64,000 nucleotides of DNA, from positions 33,463-97,462 of the forward strand of contig JANNBN010000018.1 in assembly GCA_031385545.1 (NCBI GenBank), written 5' to 3'. Shown in pieces: positions 2-9,669 of the stretch; positions within the stretch are counted from its first letter, which is position 1, and each line of letters starts with the position of its first letter. Under the pieces are notes generated by a model. It was not told where the DNA came from, made no database searches, and saw only the letters and a program-made list of their open reading frames with translations. Source of the stretch: Acidimicrobiia bacterium (lineage in GTDB: Bacteria; Actinomycetota; Acidimicrobiia; Acidimicrobiales; JANYDT01). Position numbers and translations under genes: made by a program.

Positions 2-1933
2 CCGGTTGCCGCGGCACCTGCGCGTCGGCGAGGGGGTCGCTCGGTTCTCCGCGTCGGCGCGGTTTGGCTGGCGCTGAGCACTCTTTGCGCCGCAGCAACC
101 GGCGGCGTCCAAGCTGCAGCGGCTCCTCTTCCGAGCCTCAAGCCCGGTCGGAATGCTGCCGATCTGATCGTGATGGCCGAAGCGGGAGAAATCACCAAGG
201 TGGTTGCGCAGATGCGAGCGGGCGGAGCAGAGATCGGCCGGGGGCTCCCGATCATCAACGCTGTCGCCGTTCGCTCAGATGCGACCGCGTTGGCACGCAT
301 TGAAGCGATGGACGGTGTCGATGCCGTTGTGGCGGATTCGCTGATGACGCCGATGGGTGCCGCAGTCACCGCCGATCGCACTTCGAAGCAGTCGGACAGG
401 TCCAACGACAAGAGCAACGAAAAGTCCACGGACAAGTCCTCGGACAAGACCAACGAAGACAACGCCTCCGACGACGAGAAGCGATCGGGCCAGGACGACA
501 AGCAGGACAAGGGGGCTTCAGCAACCGGTAGCCGCGATCCAGGGTCGCTCGAAGCAATTGCACGAGCCACGGGCGCACGCTCGCTGTGGCGGCGTGGCGT
601 GACCGGCAAGGGCGTTGACGTCGCGCTGATCGACACCGGAATCGTTCCGGTCGTCGGTAGCCCTGTGGTTGTCAATGGGGCTGACCTGTCGGCCGATGCA
701 GCGAACACGAACCTTCGGTTCCTCGACGGATTCGGTCACGGCACGCATATGGCCGGCATCATTGCCGGTCGCGACCCAGGGGCCGACCCCCTCCAGCAGA
801 ACGGCGCTTTTGTCGGCATCGCACCAGACGCTCGCATCGTGAACGTGAAAGTTGGAGCGATGGATGGCCGCGTGCATTCCAGCCAGGTTGTCGCGGCGAT
901 CGACTGGGTCGTGCAGAACCGCCAGGCGAACGGGATGAACATCCGCGTGATCAACCTCAGCTACGGCGCACCGGCAACACCGGACTGGCGCCGGGACCCA
1001 CTTGCATGGGCAGCAGAGGTTGCATGGCGCAAAGGCATCGTGGTGGTTGCTGCCGCCGGCAACGAAGGCAGCGGTCACGAGCTGAGCAGTCCTGCGTACT
1101 CACCAGAGATCCTCGCGGTCGGAGCGACCGACACGGAAGTGTCCCGCGGCGGCAAGGACGACTACAGCATCGCTCCGTACACCAGCACGGGCACTCGTCG
1201 GCGGCCGGACCTCTTCGTCCCCGGCGGCCACGTGATCAGCCTCCGCGCCAAGGGTTCGTTCGTCGACTCGTTCCTTGCGACGCAAAACGTGGGAGAGCGC
1301 TTCACTCGGGGGTCCGGCACGTCGCAGGCAACCGCTGTGACTTCGGGCCTCGCTGCGTTGTTGATCGAGGCACAGCCATCGGCCACACCGGACCAGATCA
1401 AGGCGCTGCTGCTGGACGGCACGGACATCTCGGGCAGGAAGCAGGATGTGACCGGGATCGAAGCCAGCATCGATGTTCTTGGTTCCTACAAGGCTGCCAA
1501 GAAGCGCCTGCCACAAGTCCGTGCTACAGACCCGTTCGCCACATGCGGCACCAGTTGGTGCCGTGGCATCGGTGACGGGTCGCCGACGTTCATCGACTGG
1601 GCCAAGGCAGCGTGGACAGGCAGCTCGTGGAACGGAAGCTCCTGGAACGGGAACTCGTGGAACGGCAGCTCGTGGTCCGGTTCCAGCTGGTCCGGGAATT
1701 CTTGGAACGGCAGCTCATGGAACGGCAGCTCCTGGAACGGCAGCTCGTGGTCCGGGTCAAGCTGGTCCGGGTCAAGCTGGTCGCAGGAAATGTGGGCCGG
1801 TTCGAGCTGGAACGGCAGCTCGTGGAACGGAAGCTCTTGGAACGGGTCGAGCTGGTCCGGGTCTTCGTGGTCAGGCAGCTCATGGAACGGCAATTCCTGG
1901 TCGGGTTCCTCGTGGTCCGGAGCGTGGGACTAG
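2..1933 (+). CDS. Secreted S8 (subtilisin-like) serine peptidase with C-terminal Trp pentapeptide repeats; 5' end probably outside the window
   Basis: Triad motifs VALIDTG (Asp), GHGTHMAG (His), GSGTSQA (Ser), oxyanion AAAGNEG. The frame is open from base 2 and encodes a signal-like segment RRRGGRSVLRVGAVWLALSTLCAAATGGVQA upstream of the ORF-track start at 170. Confidence 0.93.
   Translation, partial: PVAAAPARRRGGRSVLRVGAVWLALSTLCAAATGGVQAAAAPLPSLKPGRNAADLIVMAEAGEITKVVAQMRAGGAEIGRGLPIINAVAVRSDATALARIEAMDGVDAVVADSLMTPMGAAVTADRTSKQSDRSNDKSNEKSTDKSSDKTNEDNASDDEKRSGQDDKQDKGASATGSRDPGSLEAIARATGARSLWRRGVTGKGVDVALIDTGIVPVVGSPVVVNGADLSADAANTNLRFLDGFGHGTHMAGIIAGRDPGADPLQQNGAFVGIAPDARIVNVKVGAMDGRVHSSQVVAAIDWVVQNRQANGMNIRVINLSYGAPATPDWRRDPLAWAAEVAWRKGIVVVAAAGNEGSGHELSSPAYSPEILAVGATDTEVSRGGKDDYSIAPYTSTGTRRRPDLFVPGGHVISLRAKGSFVDSFLATQNVGERFTRGSGTSQATAVTSGLAALLIEAQPSATPDQIKALLLDGTDISGRKQDVTGIEASIDVLGSYKAAKKRLPQVRATDPFATCGTSWCRGIGDGSPTFIDWAKAAWTGSSWNGSSWNGNSWNGSSWSGSSWSGNSWNGSSWNGSSWNGSSWSGSSWSGSSWSQEMWAGSSWNGSSWNGSSWNGSSWSGSSWSGSSWNGNSWSGSSWSGAWD
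1598..1930 (+). repeat. Coding 15-bp-period repeat: W-[NST]-G-[SN]-S pentapeptides
   Basis: 22 Trp in exact 5-aa register plus terminal WD. 19 GxSW units in blocks of 11 and 8, separated by WSQEM. Ser codons vary between units. Confidence 0.97.
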
Positions 1934-1956: not shown

Positions 1957-4521
1957 ATGGGAGTGAAACCCGGTCTGGACCGGTCTCGGTTCTTGCTGCA
2001 CACATACGTAGCCGCCGTGGCGGGTAGCGGAGCGTTCCTCGGTCTGGTGACCGCGGAGCGCTCTTCCGCGCCGCACAACGCCGGCATTGCGCTCACACTT
2101 GTGGTGTTCGTCGGAACACTTCTCGCAACGTCTTTTCCAGTGCATATCGAGCTCGGCAAGGGCGTGCACACATTTGCGTTCACCGAGCTTCCGATCCTCG
2201 TTGCCGTCCTCACGATGAGTACGTCCCAGGGCTTCATCATCCTGGTAGCCGCGGCCACGGTGGCTCGGACGATCGTCCAGAAGACGGGTTTGCTCAAGTG
2301 GCTGTTCAACGGCGCGACCCTCGCTGTCGAGATGGCGCTCGTCAGCCTGTGCGTGCAGGCCATCGCGCCTGAACTTGACGTCATGCAGACGCGAACCTGG
2401 ATCGGTGTCCTGGTCGGTGCAGCGGTCGGCAATGTGGCAAGCGGGCTGTTGGTGGGCGGAGCCATCCGCTTGAGCGGCGGTTCCGTCAACGTTCCCGAGC
2501 TTCTTCGCAACACGGTCATCGGCGTGGCCGGAGCGGCCATCATTGCCTCGGTCACCCTGGTCGGGCTGATCCTCACAGAAGCCAACCCGTTCTCGTTGTT
2601 CTTCTCGGTTCTTCTGGTCACCGGGGTCACGATGTTCCACCGCCGCCATGTGATGTTGAACGAGCGGTACCGCGCAGTTCTCAAGATGGAACGCTTCACA
2701 CGTGCGCTCACTCCGGCGAATGAATCATCGGAGACCATCATCGCTGCGCTCCTTGCCAACGCTGCCGAGTTGATGAACACGGAGACCTCTTCGCTGGTGC
2801 TCGCCACTCGCGATGGAGACGTGCTTCTGACCCGTTCATCCGGCACGTTCGAAGACGGCACCACGATCCCGTACCCAAACCCCACCGACTGGGTGTGGGT
2901 CCGTGCCGTGAGCGAAAACCGCTCATTCATGCTCGATCGGCATGTCCATCGCAACGAATCGAGTGCAGCCGAATACCTCGATCGTATGCGTGTGAAGGAT
3001 CTGATCGTCGCTCCTCTCGAACTGGACGACCACACTGTCGGCCTGATCGTGGGACACAACCGCCGCAACGGAGTCGTGCGGGTCTCCGGAGCTGACCTCG
3101 ACCTGATGAGCACCATGGCACACCACGCGTCCGTGAACCTGAAGTGCTCACGCCTCATCGAACAGCTCGAGGCCGAAGTAGCCGATCGACATTACGAGGC
3201 AACCCATGATTCGCTGACGGGGCTCCACAACCGGGCGGCGTTCAACACCTGCGCCGACTCACACTTCGGGTCGACAAGTCCGGGCCACCTTTCCGCCATG
3301 ATGCTGGTCGATCTCAACCAGTTCAAGAAGGTCAACGACACCATGGGGCATCATGCCGGCGACGAGGTCCTCATCCAGATTTCCCAGCGGCTCCTCAATG
3401 CGCTTCCTCCTGGCGCCACCGTCGCCCGCCTCGGCGGCGACGAGTTCGCAGTCCTTGTTCCCACTATCACGGGTGCCCAGCAAGCGCTGGACCACGCTGC
3501 AGCTCTTCGGCAAACGATTCGCCAACCGGTCAGTGTCGAGTCGATCACGTTCGCTCTCGACGCAGCGATAGGCATCTCGATCGCTCCGGTCGACGGCGTC
3601 GACCGACACAACCTGCTGAAACGGGCCGACATCGCGATGTACGCGGCGAAGGACAAATCGAACAACCCCATCGCGCTGTACGAAGCTTCGCAGCAGCGTT
3701 GGACGGCACGCGAGATCGGTCTGCTCGAAGATCTCCGGCGGGCACTCGAGGTTGACGGTCTGGCCCTCGCGTACCAACCGAAGACGTCGCTGATCGACGG
3801 CAAGGTCTTCGGAGTCGAGGCCCTGTGCCGCTGGAATCACGCTGAGCTCGGCCCGATCCGTCCCGATGAGTTCATCGGTCTTGCCGAGCAGGGCGGGATG
3901 ATCGACCAGATCACCGACTTCGTGTTGCGTACCGCTTTGCGCCAGAGCCGGACGTGGCTCGATGAAGGCCTGAGAATCGATGTCGCAGTGAACATCCCGG
4001 CGAAGTCGCTCAGCGACCCGACCCTTGCTTCACGGATGGCAGCGATGGCGGCAGCGTTCGACGTTCCGCCGAACACACTGACGCTCGAGGTCACCGAGAG
4101 CCAATTGGTCGAAGACGCGCGGACTTCGAAGGAAGTCATGGCGACGCTTCGTTCGCACGGCTTCCGGGTGTCGATCGACGACTTCGGCACCGGCTACTCC
4201 TCGTTGGCGTATCTGCACACTCTTCCGGTTGACGAACTGAAAATCGATCGAGCCTTCGTCCGGGATCTGGCCACCGATCAGTCGAGCCGTCAGATCGTGC
4301 ACGTGATCGTGGAATTGGCACGCACGTTCGGGTTGAAGACTGTTGCCGAGGGTATCGAGACGCAGGACGTTCATGACATTCTCGCTGGGCTTGGCGTCGA
4401 GCTGGGCCAGGGATTCTTGATGGCACGGCCTTCACCGGCGGCAGACCTGAGCGACTATTTACGAAACGGGTTCCCGGGAGCGCGTCGGCCGGCTGACCCG
4501 CTGCTGCTCCACTCGAACTAG
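1957..4521 (+). CDS. Membrane-bound GAF-GGDEF-EAL diguanylate cyclase/phosphodiesterase
   Basis: N-terminal ~230 aa with multiple hydrophobic helices, then a GAF-like segment, HDSLTGLHNR, RLGGDEF, VEALCRW, DDFGTGYSS, LKIDR and VAEGIE motifs. Confidence 0.95.
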   Translation: MGVKPGLDRSRFLLHTYVAAVAGSGAFLGLVTAERSSAPHNAGIALTLVVFVGTLLATSFPVHIELGKGVHTFAFTELPILVAVLTMSTSQGFIILVAAATVARTIVQKTGLLKWLFNGATLAVEMALVSLCVQAIAPELDVMQTRTWIGVLVGAAVGNVASGLLVGGAIRLSGGSVNVPELLRNTVIGVAGAAIIASVTLVGLILTEANPFSLFFSVLLVTGVTMFHRRHVMLNERYRAVLKMERFTRALTPANESSETIIAALLANAAELMNTETSSLVLATRDGDVLLTRSSGTFEDGTTIPYPNPTDWVWVRAVSENRSFMLDRHVHRNESSAAEYLDRMRVKDLIVAPLELDDHTVGLIVGHNRRNGVVRVSGADLDLMSTMAHHASVNLKCSRLIEQLEAEVADRHYEATHDSLTGLHNRAAFNTCADSHFGSTSPGHLSAMMLVDLNQFKKVNDTMGHHAGDEVLIQISQRLLNALPPGATVARLGGDEFAVLVPTITGAQQALDHAAALRQTIRQPVSVESITFALDAAIGISIAPVDGVDRHNLLKRADIAMYAAKDKSNNPIALYEASQQRWTAREIGLLEDLRRALEVDGLALAYQPKTSLIDGKVFGVEALCRWNHAELGPIRPDEFIGLAEQGGMIDQITDFVLRTALRQSRTWLDEGLRIDVAVNIPAKSLSDPTLASRMAAMAAAFDVPPNTLTLEVTESQLVEDARTSKEVMATLRSHGFRVSIDDFGTGYSSLAYLHTLPVDELKIDRAFVRDLATDQSSRQIVHVIVELARTFGLKTVAEGIETQDVHDILAGLGVELGQGFLMARPSPAADLSDYLRNGFPGARRPADPLLLHSN

Positions 4522-4641: not shown

Positions 4642-5619
4642 ATGAATACCCCGCGAGATCTCGCTTCACGTCGCCCACCGGCCGACCGGATCTACCGTGG
4701 GGTCACAACGAGCGCGGCAATGGCGTCGCTCATGGTCATGGGCCTGATCGCGGTCTTCTTGGTCGTCCAGGCAATCCCAGCGTTGCGCACCGCCGGGCTG
4801 TCGTTCTTCACAACCAACGACTGGCGACCCGACGATGACCCGGCCACATTCGGAATCGCATCGATGCTCTGGGGCACGTTTGTGATTGCGGCCATTGCGT
4901 TGGTCATCGCTGTCCCGATCTCGATCGGCACTGCGGTGTTCGTCAATGAATACCTGCCATCTGCGCTGAAACGATCGTTCGTGTCGGTCCTGGATCTGCT
5001 CGCTGCGGTCCCTTCACTGATCTTCGGCCTGTGGGGGCTGTTCTTCCTCCAGCCTCGGTTGAGCGGAACATCACGCTGGCTTGCCGACTGGGTCGGGTTC
5101 ATCCCGATCTTCAAGGGCAACGGCATCTACACCTCTTCGATGTTCATCTCGGGTGTGGTGCTCGCGATCATGATCGTTCCGATCATCACCTCGGTCAGTC
5201 GTGCCATCGTCGCTGAAGTTCCGCGTTCGCTATCCGAAGCAGCGCTTGCGTTGGGCGGGACGCGCTGGGGGATGATCCGCCAGGTCGTTCTCCCCTACAG
5301 CAGGGGTGGGCTGGTCGGGGCGTCGATGCTGGGGTTAGGCAGAGCATTGGGCGAAACCATCGCGATTGCGTTGATCCTGAGTTTCGACTTCACCCGGTCG
5401 CTGCACATCCTCCAGCCGGGCGGCGCATCGGTCGCCGGCACCATTGCCCTCCGGTTCCCCGAGGCGCTCGATGCCGGCCGCTCGGCGCTCTCAGCCGCTG
5501 GTCTGACGCTCTTCGTCGTGACGCTGCTGGTGAACATGGCGGCACGATCCGTCGTTGCGCGCACGAACCGACGGCGCGGTGGCGGAGCAGAAGCGACGGG
5601 CGCGAAGGGAAGGGCATGA
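4642..5619 (+). CDS. pstC: Phosphate ABC transporter permease PstC
   Basis: LAAVPSLIFGLWG, EAALALGGTRW and LGRALGETIA motifs; first gene of pstCAB. Confidence 0.93.
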   Translation: MNTPRDLASRRPPADRIYRGVTTSAAMASLMVMGLIAVFLVVQAIPALRTAGLSFFTTNDWRPDDDPATFGIASMLWGTFVIAAIALVIAVPISIGTAVFVNEYLPSALKRSFVSVLDLLAAVPSLIFGLWGLFFLQPRLSGTSRWLADWVGFIPIFKGNGIYTSSMFISGVVLAIMIVPIITSVSRAIVAEVPRSLSEAALALGGTRWGMIRQVVLPYSRGGLVGASMLGLGRALGETIAIALILSFDFTRSLHILQPGGASVAGTIALRFPEALDAGRSALSAAGLTLFVVTLLVNMAARSVVARTNRRRGGGAEATGAKGRA

Positions 5620-6686
5620 CCACCATGCAGAATGCCGGCTCGCACGGACCCCGCCGCGGATCCGCTGTGTCGTCGCTGGTGTCGATGGCGCGCCAATTGG
5701 CAGTCCCCGGGCTCATCGCTGCGATCGTGACCGGGATCGCGTTTGCGACCACCCGCCTGTCCGGACCGTTCGGGATGTTCGTACTCTGGGCCGCCTGTTC
5801 GCTGCTCGGCCTCTACGTCTTCACACGTCGAAGCCAGGGACGAATGGCAGCAACAGACGCAGTTGCGTCGGTGACCCTGGGGTTCGCGGCGTTGCTGGTT
5901 GTGACTGCCTTGGGGTTCATCGTGGGCTTTGTGCTGCTGAAAGCAATCCCGTTCGTAAGGCTCAACTTCTTCACTCAGACCCTGGAAGGGATCGACCCTG
6001 ACTCGCCCGCGACGCAGGGCGGTGCGCTCCATGCGATTGTCGGCACCACTGCGCAGGTCCTTATCGCAACGTTGATCTCGCTCCCGTTCGGCGTGCTGAC
6101 AGCCGTGTACCTCAACGAGATCGGCGGCCGGCTCGCTGGCGTCGTGCGCGTCGTCATCGATGCAATGAGTGGTATCCCTTCTGTGGTCGCAGGTCTGTTC
6201 ATCTACTCCATCTGGGTCGTGCAGGGCGGGTTCGGCTATTCGGGTTTGGCGGCAGGTCTTGCGCTCGCTGTCCTGATGCTTCCGACGGTGGCTCGGACAA
6301 CGGAAGAGATGCTCCGCCTCGTTCCGGGAGGCTTACGCGAATCTGCCTTGGCTCTCGGTGCGCCCGAGTGGCGTACCGCCCTGCAGGTTGTTCTGCCGAC
6401 CGCCAAGGTCGGCATTGTGACTGCGGTGATCTTGGGTATCGCTCGCGTCGCAGGCGAAACCGCGCCGCTGCTCATGACCGCCTTCGGCAACGATCGCGTG
6501 AACGTCGTACAGACGGCCACCGAGCCGCAGTCTGCGCTCCCGCTCTTCGTGTACCAACAGTTCACCAGCGCCCAGGGTTCTGCGGTGGATCGTGCCTGGG
6601 TCGGCGCGTTCGTGCTGATCGCCTTGGTGCTGGTGCTGTTCCTCATCGCCCGTGTGATCGGGCGTTCCAAGACAGCTCGACTATGA
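5616..6686 (+). CDS. pstA: Phosphate ABC transporter permease PstA
   Basis: GIPSVVAGLF, LRESALALGA and ARVAGETAPLL motifs; ATGA overlap with pstC. Confidence 0.93.
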   Translation: MTTMQNAGSHGPRRGSAVSSLVSMARQLAVPGLIAAIVTGIAFATTRLSGPFGMFVLWAACSLLGLYVFTRRSQGRMAATDAVASVTLGFAALLVVTALGFIVGFVLLKAIPFVRLNFFTQTLEGIDPDSPATQGGALHAIVGTTAQVLIATLISLPFGVLTAVYLNEIGGRLAGVVRVVIDAMSGIPSVVAGLFIYSIWVVQGGFGYSGLAAGLALAVLMLPTVARTTEEMLRLVPGGLRESALALGAPEWRTALQVVLPTAKVGIVTAVILGIARVAGETAPLLMTAFGNDRVNVVQTATEPQSALPLFVYQQFTSAQGSAVDRAWVGAFVLIALVLVLFLIARVIGRSKTARL

Positions 6687-6756
6687 GCACTGTCGACCCG
6701 CGGAATATGTCGCATTCTTCTCCAACCTCCTTCACTCAGGAAGCCCGATCACTCTC

Positions 6757-7593
6757 ATGGCCGCAACGATGACCGCTCCACTGAACACAATCGCCCATGC
6801 CGCCGCACCGGCGAACGCACATGCGGGCACGCCTATCGAAACGCGTCACCTGTCGGCCTGGTTCGCCAAACGCCAGGTGCTCGATGATGTGACCCTTCGC
6901 ATGCCGTCGAACGCAGTCACGGCACTCATCGGGCCGTCGGGTTGTGGCAAGTCGACATTCCTTCGCAACCTCAACCGCATGCACGAACTGGTGGCAGGTG
7001 CATCGATGTCCGGCGAGGTATTGCTCGACGGGATCGACATCTACGGGCCGACGCTGCGACCGGCCGAGACGCGGCAGCGCATCGGCATGGTCTTCCAGAA
7101 GCCGAACCCATTTCCCACCATGTCGATCAACGACAACGTGCTCGCCGGGCTTCGGCTCACGGGCACAAAGGTTGCGGACAAGGATGCGCTGGTCGAATGG
7201 GCACTTACCAGGGCTGGGCTGTGGGCTGAAGTGAAAAATCGGTTGAGTGCGCCGGGCGGATCGTTGTCAGGCGGGCAGCAGCAGCGGCTCTGCATCGCTC
7301 GTTCGCTCGCCGTCAAACCCAAGGTCTTGCTGATGGACGAGCCGTGTTCGGCACTCGACCCAACGTCGACCCGACGCGTCGAGGACACCATCCGCGAGAT
7401 CGCGGACGAGGTCACCGTCGTCATCGTGACGCACAACATGCAACAGGCGCAGCGCTGCTCGGACCAGACCGTCTTCTTCCTCGCCGACGAGGAACGCCCC
7501 GGCCACATCGTCGAGGCCGGGCCGACCGAGCAGATCTTCGGAAACCCGGTCGATCCGCGGACCAACGACTACATCAACGGTCGTTTCGGCTGA
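6757..7593 (+). CDS. pstB: Phosphate ABC transporter ATP-binding protein PstB
   Basis: GPSGCGKST, GMVFQKPNPFP, LSGGQQQRLC and MDEPCSALDP motifs; C-terminal YINGRFG. Confidence 0.96.
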   Translation: MAATMTAPLNTIAHAAAPANAHAGTPIETRHLSAWFAKRQVLDDVTLRMPSNAVTALIGPSGCGKSTFLRNLNRMHELVAGASMSGEVLLDGIDIYGPTLRPAETRQRIGMVFQKPNPFPTMSINDNVLAGLRLTGTKVADKDALVEWALTRAGLWAEVKNRLSAPGGSLSGGQQQRLCIARSLAVKPKVLLMDEPCSALDPTSTRRVEDTIREIADEVTVVIVTHNMQQAQRCSDQTVFFLADEERPGHIVEAGPTEQIFGNPVDPRTNDYINGRFG

Positions 7594-7620: not shown

Positions 7621-8082
7621 TTACGGAGAGAATGCTCTCGCTGACTGCTCGGTGTCCTCGGAGCCACGGAAGAAGACGATCTTGCCGTCGACGACTCGCC
7701 ACCAGTGCAGCATGAACATCGAAGCCGTGCGTTGCGTGGACTTCACGGTGTACGTCCAACGAATGACGGCCACGACGTCTGTCTCGTTCGAGGTGAAGGT
7801 CACCGGCACGAACTCCGACACGTCGATCTGGGTGCTGATCGCAGCGAAGAAGCCGGGAACTGATTGCTTGCCCCGGAAGGGGCCGTACCAGGGGGCCGAC
7901 CTGCTGGATGCTTCAGCGGCCCAGTCGACATCGTCGGCGAGTTCGACAAGGACTGCGTCGATGTCACGCTTCGCGTAGGCTTCGTAGAGCCGCTTGACGA
8001 CATCGGCGCTGTTGGTGCTGTCGGTGGATAGGGACGGGGTTTGTGTGTTGACGGTTTGTGTGTTGACGGTTTGTGTGTTCAT
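7621..8082 (-). CDS. NTF2-like / SnoaL-like protein
   Basis: VVKRLYEAYAKRDIDAV...DDVDW pattern and WRVVDGKIV; start moved to the ATG at 8082. Confidence 0.8.
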   Translation of the reverse strand: MNTQTVNTQTVNTQTPSLSTDSTNSADVVKRLYEAYAKRDIDAVLVELADDVDWAAEASSRSAPWYGPFRGKQSVPGFFAAISTQIDVSEFVPVTFTSNETDVVAVIRWTYTVKSTQRTASMFMLHWWRVVDGKIVFFRGSEDTEQSARAFSP

Positions 8083-8148
8083 GACCCCACGATGACAAGC
8101 ACGCAACACCCTCGGCATCGGGAGAACACCCCACATACACTCCGAGAT

Positions 8149-9669
8149 GTGGGTACCCAGATCACGACGGTCGAGGTTGCTGCTTTGCTTGCTCTGGCGC
8201 AGGACCATTCGTTCGGCCAGCCGCCAGGGTCACAGCTCCGCGCCACGGTGATCGCACAGCATCTCGCCACTGCGGCAGGACTGACTCCCACAGAACGCGC
8301 CCATGTCTGGTGGACCTCGACCCTGCGGTTCCTCGGCTGTACGGGCCATGCGTTCGACACTGCGGTCGTCTTCGGAGACGAGATCGAGTTACGCGCAGCC
8401 TCCCTGCACGCCGACTTCTCGAGTACCGCGGAGGTATTGCGGTTGATGGTCGAACGCGCTGGATCGGACCGTTCAGGAAGCGCCCGCATTCGCTCGGTAC
8501 TCGCTGTCCTGGCCGGCGGCCAGAAGGCGGCCGAACTCAACTTCCGGATGGCGTGCGAGGTCGCCGATTCGTTCGCCCAGCGGCTCGGCATAGCCGACCC
8601 GGTCCGCCTCGCTCTTGCTGCGAACTTCGAGCGATGGAACGGCCGTGGTCTGCCGAAACATGTGAAGGGCAACGAAATCCCCATACCTATGCGGGTGGCA
8701 CAGCTCAGCCAGGAGCTGGAAGTTTTCGCACGTGTCGATGACGTCGCCAGCGCGGTGGAAATGGTCGCCGACCGCTCAGGCAGAGCGTACGACCCTGCGC
8801 TTGCGAACCTTGTCGGCGCGAACGCCGAGGAGTGGTTCGCCTCGATCAACGATGTCGACCCGTGGGACGCTGCGCTTGCGCTCGCGCCGCCCAGCCCTCC
8901 ACTTGGCGCGGCGGCAGCACGCGATGCGCTGTTGGTTCTCGCCGACTTCGCTGACCTCAAGTGCCCGTGGATGAGCGGGCACTCGCGGACGGTAGCGGCT
9001 CTGGCGCTCGAGGCCGGAGGCCCTGATGCCGAAGCTGCGGCGCTGGTCCACGATTTCGGGGTTGTGGCCGTGCCGAACACGATCTGGGACAAACGCGGCG
9101 CGTTGACGCGCGACGAACGAGACCGCGCCGAGAGCCACTCGCTGATCACCGAACAACTGCTGCGTCGGGTGCCGTACACCGCGGCCCTTTCGGGTCGCGC
9201 CGGAGCAGCCCATGAACGCGTCGACGCGACGGGCTACCACCGCCGTTGCGGTGCAGCGCAACTCGACCTGACGCAGCGCATCGTCGCAGCCGCCGACTGC
9301 TACCAGGCGATGACATCGGAACGTCCCCATCGTGGCGCACTGACGCGCGAAGCAGCCGTTTCTGAGATGCGTGCGATGAGCCGTGCGGGACAACTGGACG
9401 GTGAAGCTGTCGAACGAGTGCTCGAGGCCGCCGGCAATCGTCGTACCGCCAGGCCACCGTTGCCGGCCGGGCTCACGACCCGCGAGGCCGAGGTGCTGCG
9501 TCTCCTCACTCTGGGCCTTACCACTCGCGAGGTCGCTCGGCAGTTGACGATAACGGCGAAGACCGCCGATCACCATGTCCAGCACATCTATACAAAGATC
9601 GGCGTCTCCACTCGAGGCGCAGCAGCGCTTTTCGCAATCGAGCACGGCATTCTGCCGGGCGACACCTGA
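8149..9669 (+). CDS. Tandem HD-GYP-like domains fused to a C-terminal LuxR HTH
   Basis: FERWNGRGLP, LVHDFG and HERVDATGYH motifs; LTTREAEVLRLL...HVQHIYTKIGV HTH. GTG start at 8149 follows TACACT; alternative ATG at 8092. Confidence 0.88.
   Translation: MGTQITTVEVAALLALAQDHSFGQPPGSQLRATVIAQHLATAAGLTPTERAHVWWTSTLRFLGCTGHAFDTAVVFGDEIELRAASLHADFSSTAEVLRLMVERAGSDRSGSARIRSVLAVLAGGQKAAELNFRMACEVADSFAQRLGIADPVRLALAANFERWNGRGLPKHVKGNEIPIPMRVAQLSQELEVFARVDDVASAVEMVADRSGRAYDPALANLVGANAEEWFASINDVDPWDAALALAPPSPPLGAAAARDALLVLADFADLKCPWMSGHSRTVAALALEAGGPDAEAAALVHDFGVVAVPNTIWDKRGALTRDERDRAESHSLITEQLLRRVPYTAALSGRAGAAHERVDATGYHRRCGAAQLDLTQRIVAAADCYQAMTSERPHRGALTREAAVSEMRAMSRAGQLDGEAVERVLEAAGNRRTARPPLPAGLTTREAEVLRLLTLGLTTREVARQLTITAKTADHHVQHIYTKIGVSTRGAAALFAIEHGILPGDT

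Follow-up and report, generated by a model that had tools for sequence, protein, structure and literature searches.

A subtilase with a tryptophan pentapeptide tail, encoded next to a MASE9-like membrane sensor, as a possible self-processing peptide signal

Introduction

Why would a bacterial protein end in a tail in which tryptophan returns at every fifth residue? The question is raised by a 64,000-nucleotide (nt) stretch of DNA from an Acidimicrobiia bacterium (assembly GCA_031385545.1, contig JANNBN010000018.1, positions 33,463 to 97,462 of the forward strand; hereafter the window), in which the first gene ends in such a repeat and the next encodes a membrane sensor with domains for making and breaking cyclic di-GMP (c-di-GMP). 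A preliminary description of the DNA considered the repeat a β-solenoid with a tryptophan core, which could act as an amyloid-like polymer, a binding face or a multi-copy peptide precursor. Here the repeat is assigned to a subtilase, its family is surveyed and its relation to the sensor is analyzed. Of the options considered earlier, the multi-copy peptide precursor fits best with the spread of copy numbers, the diversity of the units and their position at the very end of the protein, and we give an even chance to a self-processing multi-copy peptide signal read by the MASE9-like receptor encoded next to it.

Results

An S8 subtilase ends in the tryptophan repeat

The repeat forms the C-terminus of an S8 subtilase whose gene starts 52 nt before the window (Table 1). 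Membership in S8 follows from the PF00082 profile match (145 bits against a cut-off of 21.8) and from an intact catalytic triad with its oxyanion asparagine; D229, H264, N372 and S459 are invariant across 82 homologues. Pro-domain and protease adopt a confident AlphaFold fold, and the best Foldseek matches are pro-subtilisin structures. Proteolysis and self-maturation are presumed, and export through the Sec pathway is predicted. The 12-nt repeat between pro-domain and protease encodes a D/K/S-rich linker, the length of which varies widely among the closest homologues. AprX-type, the label that such S8 subtilases receive automatically, covers the common arrangement of pro-domain and D/H/S domain; the tryptophan tail and the coupling to a sensor are not part of it.

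Within the tail, 22 TGG codons follow one another at an exact spacing of 15 nt (window 1598 to 1913–1915), and the strict five-residue register reported earlier holds, also for the deviating units WAKAA and WSQEM. The reported W-D ending is likewise present, as a 23rd tryptophan (window 1925, four residues past the 22nd) followed by Asp and the stop codon (1931–1933), and so are the cysteine pair ahead of the tail (C533 at 1544 and C538 at 1559) and all five serine codons named. When the 111-residue tail was shuffled 20,000 times, the longest in-register tryptophan run was 6. Scanned in all six frames, the whole genome gave four runs of at least five in-register tryptophans: the window tail, the 6-Trp tail of a paralogous protease on contig C94, and two runs of five that lie opposite open reading frames (ORFs) with Thr/Pro-rich repeats. 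Synonymous differences occur in 66% of same-amino-acid codon pairs between units, so it is the protein sequence that is kept; together with a register preserved in hundreds of homologues, this supports the earlier proposal of selection at the protein level. Slippage also acts, since some perfect tails in the family show low synonymous divergence (0.07–0.14). The shuffles and the synonymous differences rule out chance or DNA slippage alone as the origin of the tail, and an opposite-strand or frame artefact is ruled out because the same frame encodes the full S8 domain.

Tailed proteases form a family with diverse units

A search with the C-terminal 282 residues gave 2418 matches among 7979 candidates. 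The family is present in 72 of 401 genomes in a sample of the class and in 74 of 401 in a sample of the phylum, the latter tally including three genomes marked unpublished. Named relatives belong to Acidimicrobiia, other Actinomycetota, Chloroflexota and Dormibacterota, and Acidobacteriota contain six-residue versions, some without tryptophan. The tail alone as query found 716 longer matches; all 120 of those listed carry PF00082, so that none of these 120 places the tail on a non-S8 protein. Among 34 short matches, 12 were read, of which 11 are fragments of such proteases and one is a chimera. Loci were drawn from 80 regions around the top-scoring matches of each genome search and from 79 and 80 regions of two contig scans. 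Among them, the related proteases of L032–L082 (Acidobacteriota, Chloroflexota, Gammaproteobacteria) carry six-residue tryptophan units, spacer-separated units or Trp-less hexapeptides (L043, L075, L081), and the sensors beside the proteases of L048, L049, L060, L062, L067 and L082 seemingly have little or no output domain.

Across 247 tails the copy number ranges from 5 to 38. The protein ends one residue after the last tryptophan in 168 of them, and because the last residue of perfect tails is the unit's own, the register is read as G-x-x-W-x with the C-terminus as a unit boundary. Non-tryptophan positions differ at 30% between units of one tail and at 66% between tails, and 135 different dominant units occur in the 247 tails. 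Highly charged units with two basic residues are common, as are tails of only 5–7 units; proline is rare (48 of 16,437 residues). Relatives within the superfamily have units of 4, 6 or 7 residues or units separated by spacers.

Copies of a similar motif also occur at the other end of the protein. G-x-[S/T]-W-[D/S/T/E/N/G] is found within 45 residues before the hydrophobic stretch of the signal peptide in 18 of 167 relatives, against an expectation of 0.8 and a maximum of 3 in 300 shuffles; some of the carriers are kin to one another, and non-coding sequence may lie within the region. Such n-region copies, of the G-V/I/L-S-W-D/N/G type, are seen in L010 (three copies), L091, L095, L261, L027, L248 and others. 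The window protease has no clear copy.

The tail is coupled to a neighboring sensor gene

In the window the sensor gene starts 23 nt downstream of the protease gene. Where a complete tailed protease is followed by 1.5 kb of DNA or more, a sensor starts within 800 nt downstream in 76 of 109, 31 of 37 and 64 of 72 cases in three sets (171 of 218 in total). No sensor followed any of five S8 matches lacking the repeat tail, one of which had little downstream DNA. At the level of genomes, the sensor is present in 71 of 72 that bear the protease versus 84 of 329 that do not, the genomes including kin that are not independent and the 84 including one unpublished genome. Distances on the protease and sensor trees are correlated (rho 0.70 in 63 pairs). 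Protease and sensor alone recur when the neighborhoods of 108 loci are clustered; no third gene does. Enzymes for ComX-like prenylation or for AgrB- or radical-SAM-type modification were looked for near these 108 loci and rejected, none recurring.

The genome holds further members of both families. The paralogous S8 protease (C94:5941–7455, minus strand, L002) is 44% identical, has a 6-Trp GSTWS tail and lies on an 8.6-kb contig without a sensor. Two sensors of the same family, with GGDEF-EAL output, are encoded elsewhere (L084/L325, from C13:55074, and L327, C146:29359–30072), and the flanks seen contain no tailed protease. Such orphan sensors may listen to the orphan protease or to other cells. 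In other genomes, tandem arrays of two to five tailed proteases occur without an adjacent sensor (L042, L092, L093, L097, L099).

The sensor has a predicted S-component fold with a pocket facing the cytoplasm

The motifs of the sensor's output domains are intact (GGDEF; EAL, DDFGTG, AEGIE). Output domains vary within the family, with GGDEF-EAL, HD-GYP, kinase or PP2C motifs, and the membrane domain is constant. A model of the latter from a 116-sequence alignment (predicted local distance difference test, pLDDT, 93) shows eight helices and a hairpin. Compared by VIA search with 48,161 solved chains, its top 15 matches were all S-components from transporters of the energy-coupling factor (ECF) type (Z 10.2–13.7, the next being 6.8), including 4m5c (Z 13.7, root-mean-square deviation 4.0, 184 residues aligned) and TmRibU (Z 12.9, deviation 3.2, 165 aligned). 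RibU also accounts for the only sequence matches of the sensor in the PDB (E 0.1 and 0.3). The model contains the six-helix S-component fold, and sensor Asn159 aligns three residues before Asn123/Asn131 of RibU, which we take to be ligand contacts.

The domain also resembles MASE9 (PF20972), which is described as having eight membrane segments, two of them short, with a conserved Asn and aromatic residues and with fusions to HD-GYP or GGDEF-EAL; Galperin and Chou proposed that it binds a ligand within the membrane, with no ligand known (bioRxiv 10.1101/2021.11.05.467447; here and below, published systems are compared through the available parts of the cited sources). Shared features of the sensor are eight modeled helices, a short hairpin, an asparagine (Asn118) present in 168 of 168 sequences and a GAF-GGDEF-EAL output. 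The PF20972 profile matches 37 of 116 family members at E≤0.01 (best E 1e-7) and nothing in the window sensor or the genome. The sensor is called MASE9-like, not MASE9, because its relatives match and its own match is absent.

S-components hold their ligand in a pocket under loops L1, L3 and L5 on the outer face (PMC4525288). Their six-helix fold also occurs in the receptors BtsS and YpdA, and 5TMR receptors keep the outward pocket (PMC11109136). Unlike in these proteins, the eighth helix of the sensor and its Lys/Arg pattern predict that L1, L3 and L5 are cytoplasmic. In the model the three loops and the C-terminal GAF domain share one side, and the loops' mean Lys/Arg counts are 1.8, 3.1 and 2.3, against 0.8, 0.1, 1.0 and 0.5 on the other side, as counted in windows of unequal length and with L1 acidic too. 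Because the loops share the GAF side and are richer in Lys/Arg, the sensor is predicted to have an S-component-type pocket opening to the cytoplasm. The 5TMR-LYT type is defined by seven helices with the N-terminus outside, an outward pocket and an NxR motif; the sensor differs from it in having eight helices and a predicted cytoplasmic pocket; PF07694 matches none of the 116 members, and MASE domains are not mentioned in the available text of PMC11109136.

Unit charge tracks one residue of the sensor

Co-variation between unit and sensor was scanned in 72 discovery pairs, left after removal of one locus with two sensors and three with frameshifts; each trait was set against 924 features of the sensor and 812 of the protease. 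Two charge-complementary links were picked and written down before new pairs were fetched: a basic residue two positions before the tryptophan (W-2) with an acidic residue at position 159 of the sensor (H1), and a basic residue at W-1 with loss of Lys/Arg at position 108 (H2). For H1, position 159 was acidic in 9 of 10 pairs with basic W-2 versus 2 of 62 others. The link recurred in 101 new pairs (10 of 19 versus 6 of 82) and in the held-out set cleaned of duplicates, gaps and loci without a usable protease domain (9 of 18 versus 5 of 76, p 5e-5). For H2, Lys/Arg at 108 was retained in 3 of 21 versus 53 of 80 new pairs, and in the cleaned set the basic residue was lost in 7 of 10 versus 13 of 64.

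Independent changes were counted on FastTree trees of 168 pairs. They amount to 7.6:0 on the protease tree and 7.1:0 on the sensor tree for H1, and to 7.3:0 and 6.5:0 for H2. Pagel-type tests, run with custom code on all branches with the discovery pairs included, gave p values of at most 1e-4, with null results for swapped controls. On either tree, none of the 1872 sensor and 2336 protease features ranks above H1; H2, whose position lies in a gappy loop, comes in second to fourth place. The window pair, with Ser/Asn at W-2 and Asn at 159, is consistent with H1. H1 provides moderate evidence, drawn from sequence co-variation, that the unit touches the sensor.

Features and surroundings of the locus

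Coordinates are collected in Table 1. About 400 nt upstream of the protease ATG there is one promoter-like site, and Rfam gave no match at the three loci scanned. The protease-sensor pair sits between pstC-pstA-pstB-like genes downstream (4642–7593) and phoU/kinase/regulator-like genes upstream (C95:24801–27330), names that are read from translations only and a context without recurrence at other loci. Further on, an exact 15-nt repeat (2.8 copies, window 8038–8079) encodes repeated VNTQT close to the beginning of ORF 7621–8208 on the minus strand.

Table 1. Features of the protease-sensor pair in window coordinates
Feature	Position	Strand	Remarks
S8 subtilase gene, 661 residues	2..1933 (likely ATG at window -52, contig C95:33410)	+	Pfam PF00082, E 3e-42
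Likely Sec signal peptide	2..121, begins before window	+	By eye: basic n-region, hydrophobic stretch, Ala-x-Ala end
Folded β-α-β pro-domain, residues 70–135	155..352	+	pLDDT >90 over residues 71–130; subtilisin-propeptide-like
Charged low-complexity linker	368..520	+	Contains 12-nt repeat (393–452)
S8 catalytic domain	605..1420	+	Asp229 (632), His264 (737), Ser459 (1322), oxyanion Asn372
Cys pair C533, C538 before repeats	1544..1561	+	Similar C...CRG motif in 37/121 stored proteins (closest subfamily)
Trp pentapeptide tail	1598..1930	+	G-x-x-W-x units: GSSWN x8, GSSWS x8, GNSWN x2, GNSWS x1; three variant units and terminal unit ending W-D
Membrane sensor gene, 854 residues	1957..4521	+	Membrane domain, GAF, GGDEF, EAL
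MASE9-like membrane domain	1978..2700	+	ECF S-component fold extended by one helix at either end
Sensor Gln108, end of helix 3, loop L3	2278..2280	+	Weaker co-variation with unit W-1 residue
Sensor Asn159, middle of helix 5	2431..2433	+	Charge co-varies with unit W-2 residue across family

Discussion

Since the sensor gene adjoins the protease gene and the sensor's predicted pocket co-varies with the units, a likely reading is that the protease processes its own tail to yield a peptide signal for the sensor. The protein would be exported and mature itself, and would then cut the tail into about 20 pentapeptides per molecule, mostly GSSWN and GSSWS. The peptides would be taken up, for instance through an oligopeptide permease, the route of Phr peptides, and bind the sensor pocket, upon which the level of c-di-GMP would shift. 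Some 20 copies per protease could amplify the signal, and changes of the unit could create private channels. The steps differ in how far they can be trusted. The unit or its W-x end is probably the ligand of the sensor, release of pentapeptides by a cut one residue past each tryptophan is somewhat favored, and import of the peptides to reach the pocket is rather doubtful.

A number of observations weigh against a self-processed peptide signal. On the genomic side, no transporter gene is linked to the 108 clustered loci, although the import step requires one; import is at most permitted by the genome's eight oligopeptide-type binding proteins (PF00496), which are common and none of which is linked. 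The sensor is not directly downstream of 47 of 218 tailed proteases, some of them in tandem arrays, and no convincing stand-alone mini-precursor was found in the fetched loci or in the 12 of 34 short matches. The co-variation is also uneven. On well-supported branches only, H1 retains 4 pairs with a median p of 0.5, at low power, and the count of independent changes is about 4:0.5 when only the held-out pairs are used. Whole-sequence correlation of sensor with unit, given the protease, is not significant (partial rho 0.14, p 0.065), and in contrasts unrelated columns reach |r| 0.40, compared with -0.34 to -0.39 for the H1 and H2 pairs. Half of the held-out basic-W-2 cases have no acidic residue at 159, the window sensor has Gln at 108, where Arg is usual, despite a neutral unit, and no residue of the protease pocket gave a clear signal of co-variation with the unit that would mark the cut site. 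Finally, the units are compatible with β-helix repeats, and copy numbers are biased in two subsets, towards even numbers in the held-out set alone (81:55) and towards multiples of four in a score-ranked protein set (44 of 120).

The last two points bear on the solenoid. Such a tail, folded as a pentapeptide-repeat solenoid or a left-handed β-helix, could serve as a cap, binding surface or spacer of the secreted protease, and the co-regulated sensor would sense something else, such as protease products. The tail shares a five- or six-residue period and small residues with pentapeptide-repeat proteins (Qnr, MfpA; the PF00805 group) and hexapeptide left-handed β-helices; it matches Qnr proteins weakly (E 0.0025), is poor in proline, and two of 15 relatives scanned pass profile cut-offs, one with Pentapeptide_2 over the tail and one with Hexapep over a Trp-less hexapeptide tail. 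An Atlas neighbor cluster has Hexapep in 16% of its members (score 0.89), which serves as a lead only. Unlike pentapeptide-repeat proteins, with their A(D/N)Lxx-type consensus in which Leu or Phe takes the corresponding place, the tail has tryptophan at a fixed position, and the window tail matches no Pfam profile at E≤0.05, pentapeptide ones included. Structure prediction, a check proposed in the preliminary description, gave no confident fold for residues 558–661 (pLDDT about 29, 82-sequence alignment); AlphaFold often fails on perfect repeats, so the low value is weak evidence against a solenoid. Another check proposed there, copy number in homologues, upheld the register and showed no coil periodicity: the pooled 247 tails are unbiased modulo 2, 3 and 4 (p 0.11, 0.15 and 0.38). 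For a right-handed quadrilateral β-helix with four units per coil, the weak Qnr match stands against this lack of bias and the low pLDDT. Units of 4, 5, 6 and 7 residues and spacer-separated units within one superfamily, and a tail seen only on S8 proteins among the matches listed, also argue against a solenoid, which would leave unexplained both the unit charge that tracks one sensor residue and the single units in signal-peptide n-regions. The tryptophan-core solenoid, weakly supported by sequence resemblance, is in our view unlikely.

A different use of the same unit would be to report from inside the producing cell. An unexported or degraded precursor, a free W-x end or an n-region copy would reach the pocket, and the pair would report export load or the state of the envelope. 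The signal-peptide n-region stays in the cytoplasm and hence on the side of the predicted sensor pocket; the motif copies there (up to three per protein), the conserved W-x end and the lack of a linked transporter fit as well, and the co-variation is accounted for equally well as by a secreted signal. Such in-cell sensing leaves unexplained why an exported, catalytically intact protease should carry 5–38 internal copies and why units should be so diverse between genomes (135 types, suggesting private channels), and the window protein itself lacks a clear n-region copy. We regard it as quite improbable.

Still less can be said for the tail as an internal decoy substrate or inhibitor by which protease activation is timed, the link to the sensor being regulatory only. 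Its restriction to S8 proteases among the matches listed and its retention in orphan and tandem proteases would suit that role. Against it, the protein already has a pro-domain of its own, and charge-complementary co-variation is stronger with the sensor than with the protease; a decoy is very unlikely. An amyloid-like polymer anchoring the protease in a c-di-GMP-controlled matrix, after the manner of the Nanog tryptophan-repeat region that drives assembly (PMC9106587), would suit tryptophan at every fifth residue on a Ser/Gly/Asn background beside a sensor whose domains would make and break c-di-GMP, and is hardly credible given that highly charged units and tails of 5–7 units are common and the co-variation would go unexplained.

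A self-processed peptide signal has its closest counterpart in the Phr/RRNPPA systems of Bacillota. Their signals of 5–10 residues, usually C-terminal, come from Sec-exported precursors cut by extracellular proteases and are re-imported by the oligopeptide permease Opp; the precursor gene adjoins the receptor gene, and one to four tandem copies are known (PMC11343458). The proposed exported precursor, the short peptide and the adjacent receptor gene are similar. Unlike there, the precursor is fused to its own 661-residue subtilase and has 5–38 copies with an invariant tryptophan, processing and import being proposed here; and in place of a soluble RRNPPA receptor the neighbor is a membrane protein of S-component fold with c-di-GMP, kinase or phosphatase output. 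The combination of a separate propeptide gene of 50–120 residues with a soluble RRNPPA receptor is absent from the locus. The system appears to work like Phr-type peptide signaling, yet lies outside every named family tested.

Gene order and tandem copies recall other peptide systems. In agr and comQXP the processing enzyme, the peptide and the N-terminus of the receptor form a co-varying cassette, and tandem copies of yeast alpha-factor are released by Kex2, which belongs to the subtilase family. The present locus differs from these: no modification enzyme recurs, spacers and dibasic sites between units are absent, and the enzyme shares a single chain with its peptide.

Neither the tail nor the protease-sensor pairing was found described in the literature searched, subscription journals and preprint supplements lying outside its coverage, and the exact motif strings had no match there. 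That literature also yielded no peptide signals that feed c-di-GMP in these phyla of soil and water, and the words 'protease' and 'peptidase' are absent from the main text, as available, of the MASE9 paper (bioRxiv 10.1101/2021.11.05.467447). The protease, tail and sensor would form an apparently undescribed input to c-di-GMP signaling. More tentatively, they may represent a widespread undescribed class of cell-to-cell signaling in Actinomycetota, Chloroflexota and Acidobacteriota, in which one gene would supply the maturing protease together with its tryptophan-peptide pheromone in as many as about 40 copies, and the receptor, an upside-down version of the S-component fold of vitamin transporters, would read the peptide by a simple charge code from the side of the cytoplasm and drive c-di-GMP, kinase or phosphatase outputs. 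MASE9-like sensors are without a known ligand; here a candidate can be read from the neighboring gene, which makes the question of their ligand testable. If the proposal is true, the peptide would be the first ligand for MASE9-like sensors, and the at least 135 unit types could serve as a natural set of orthogonal peptide-receptor pairs.

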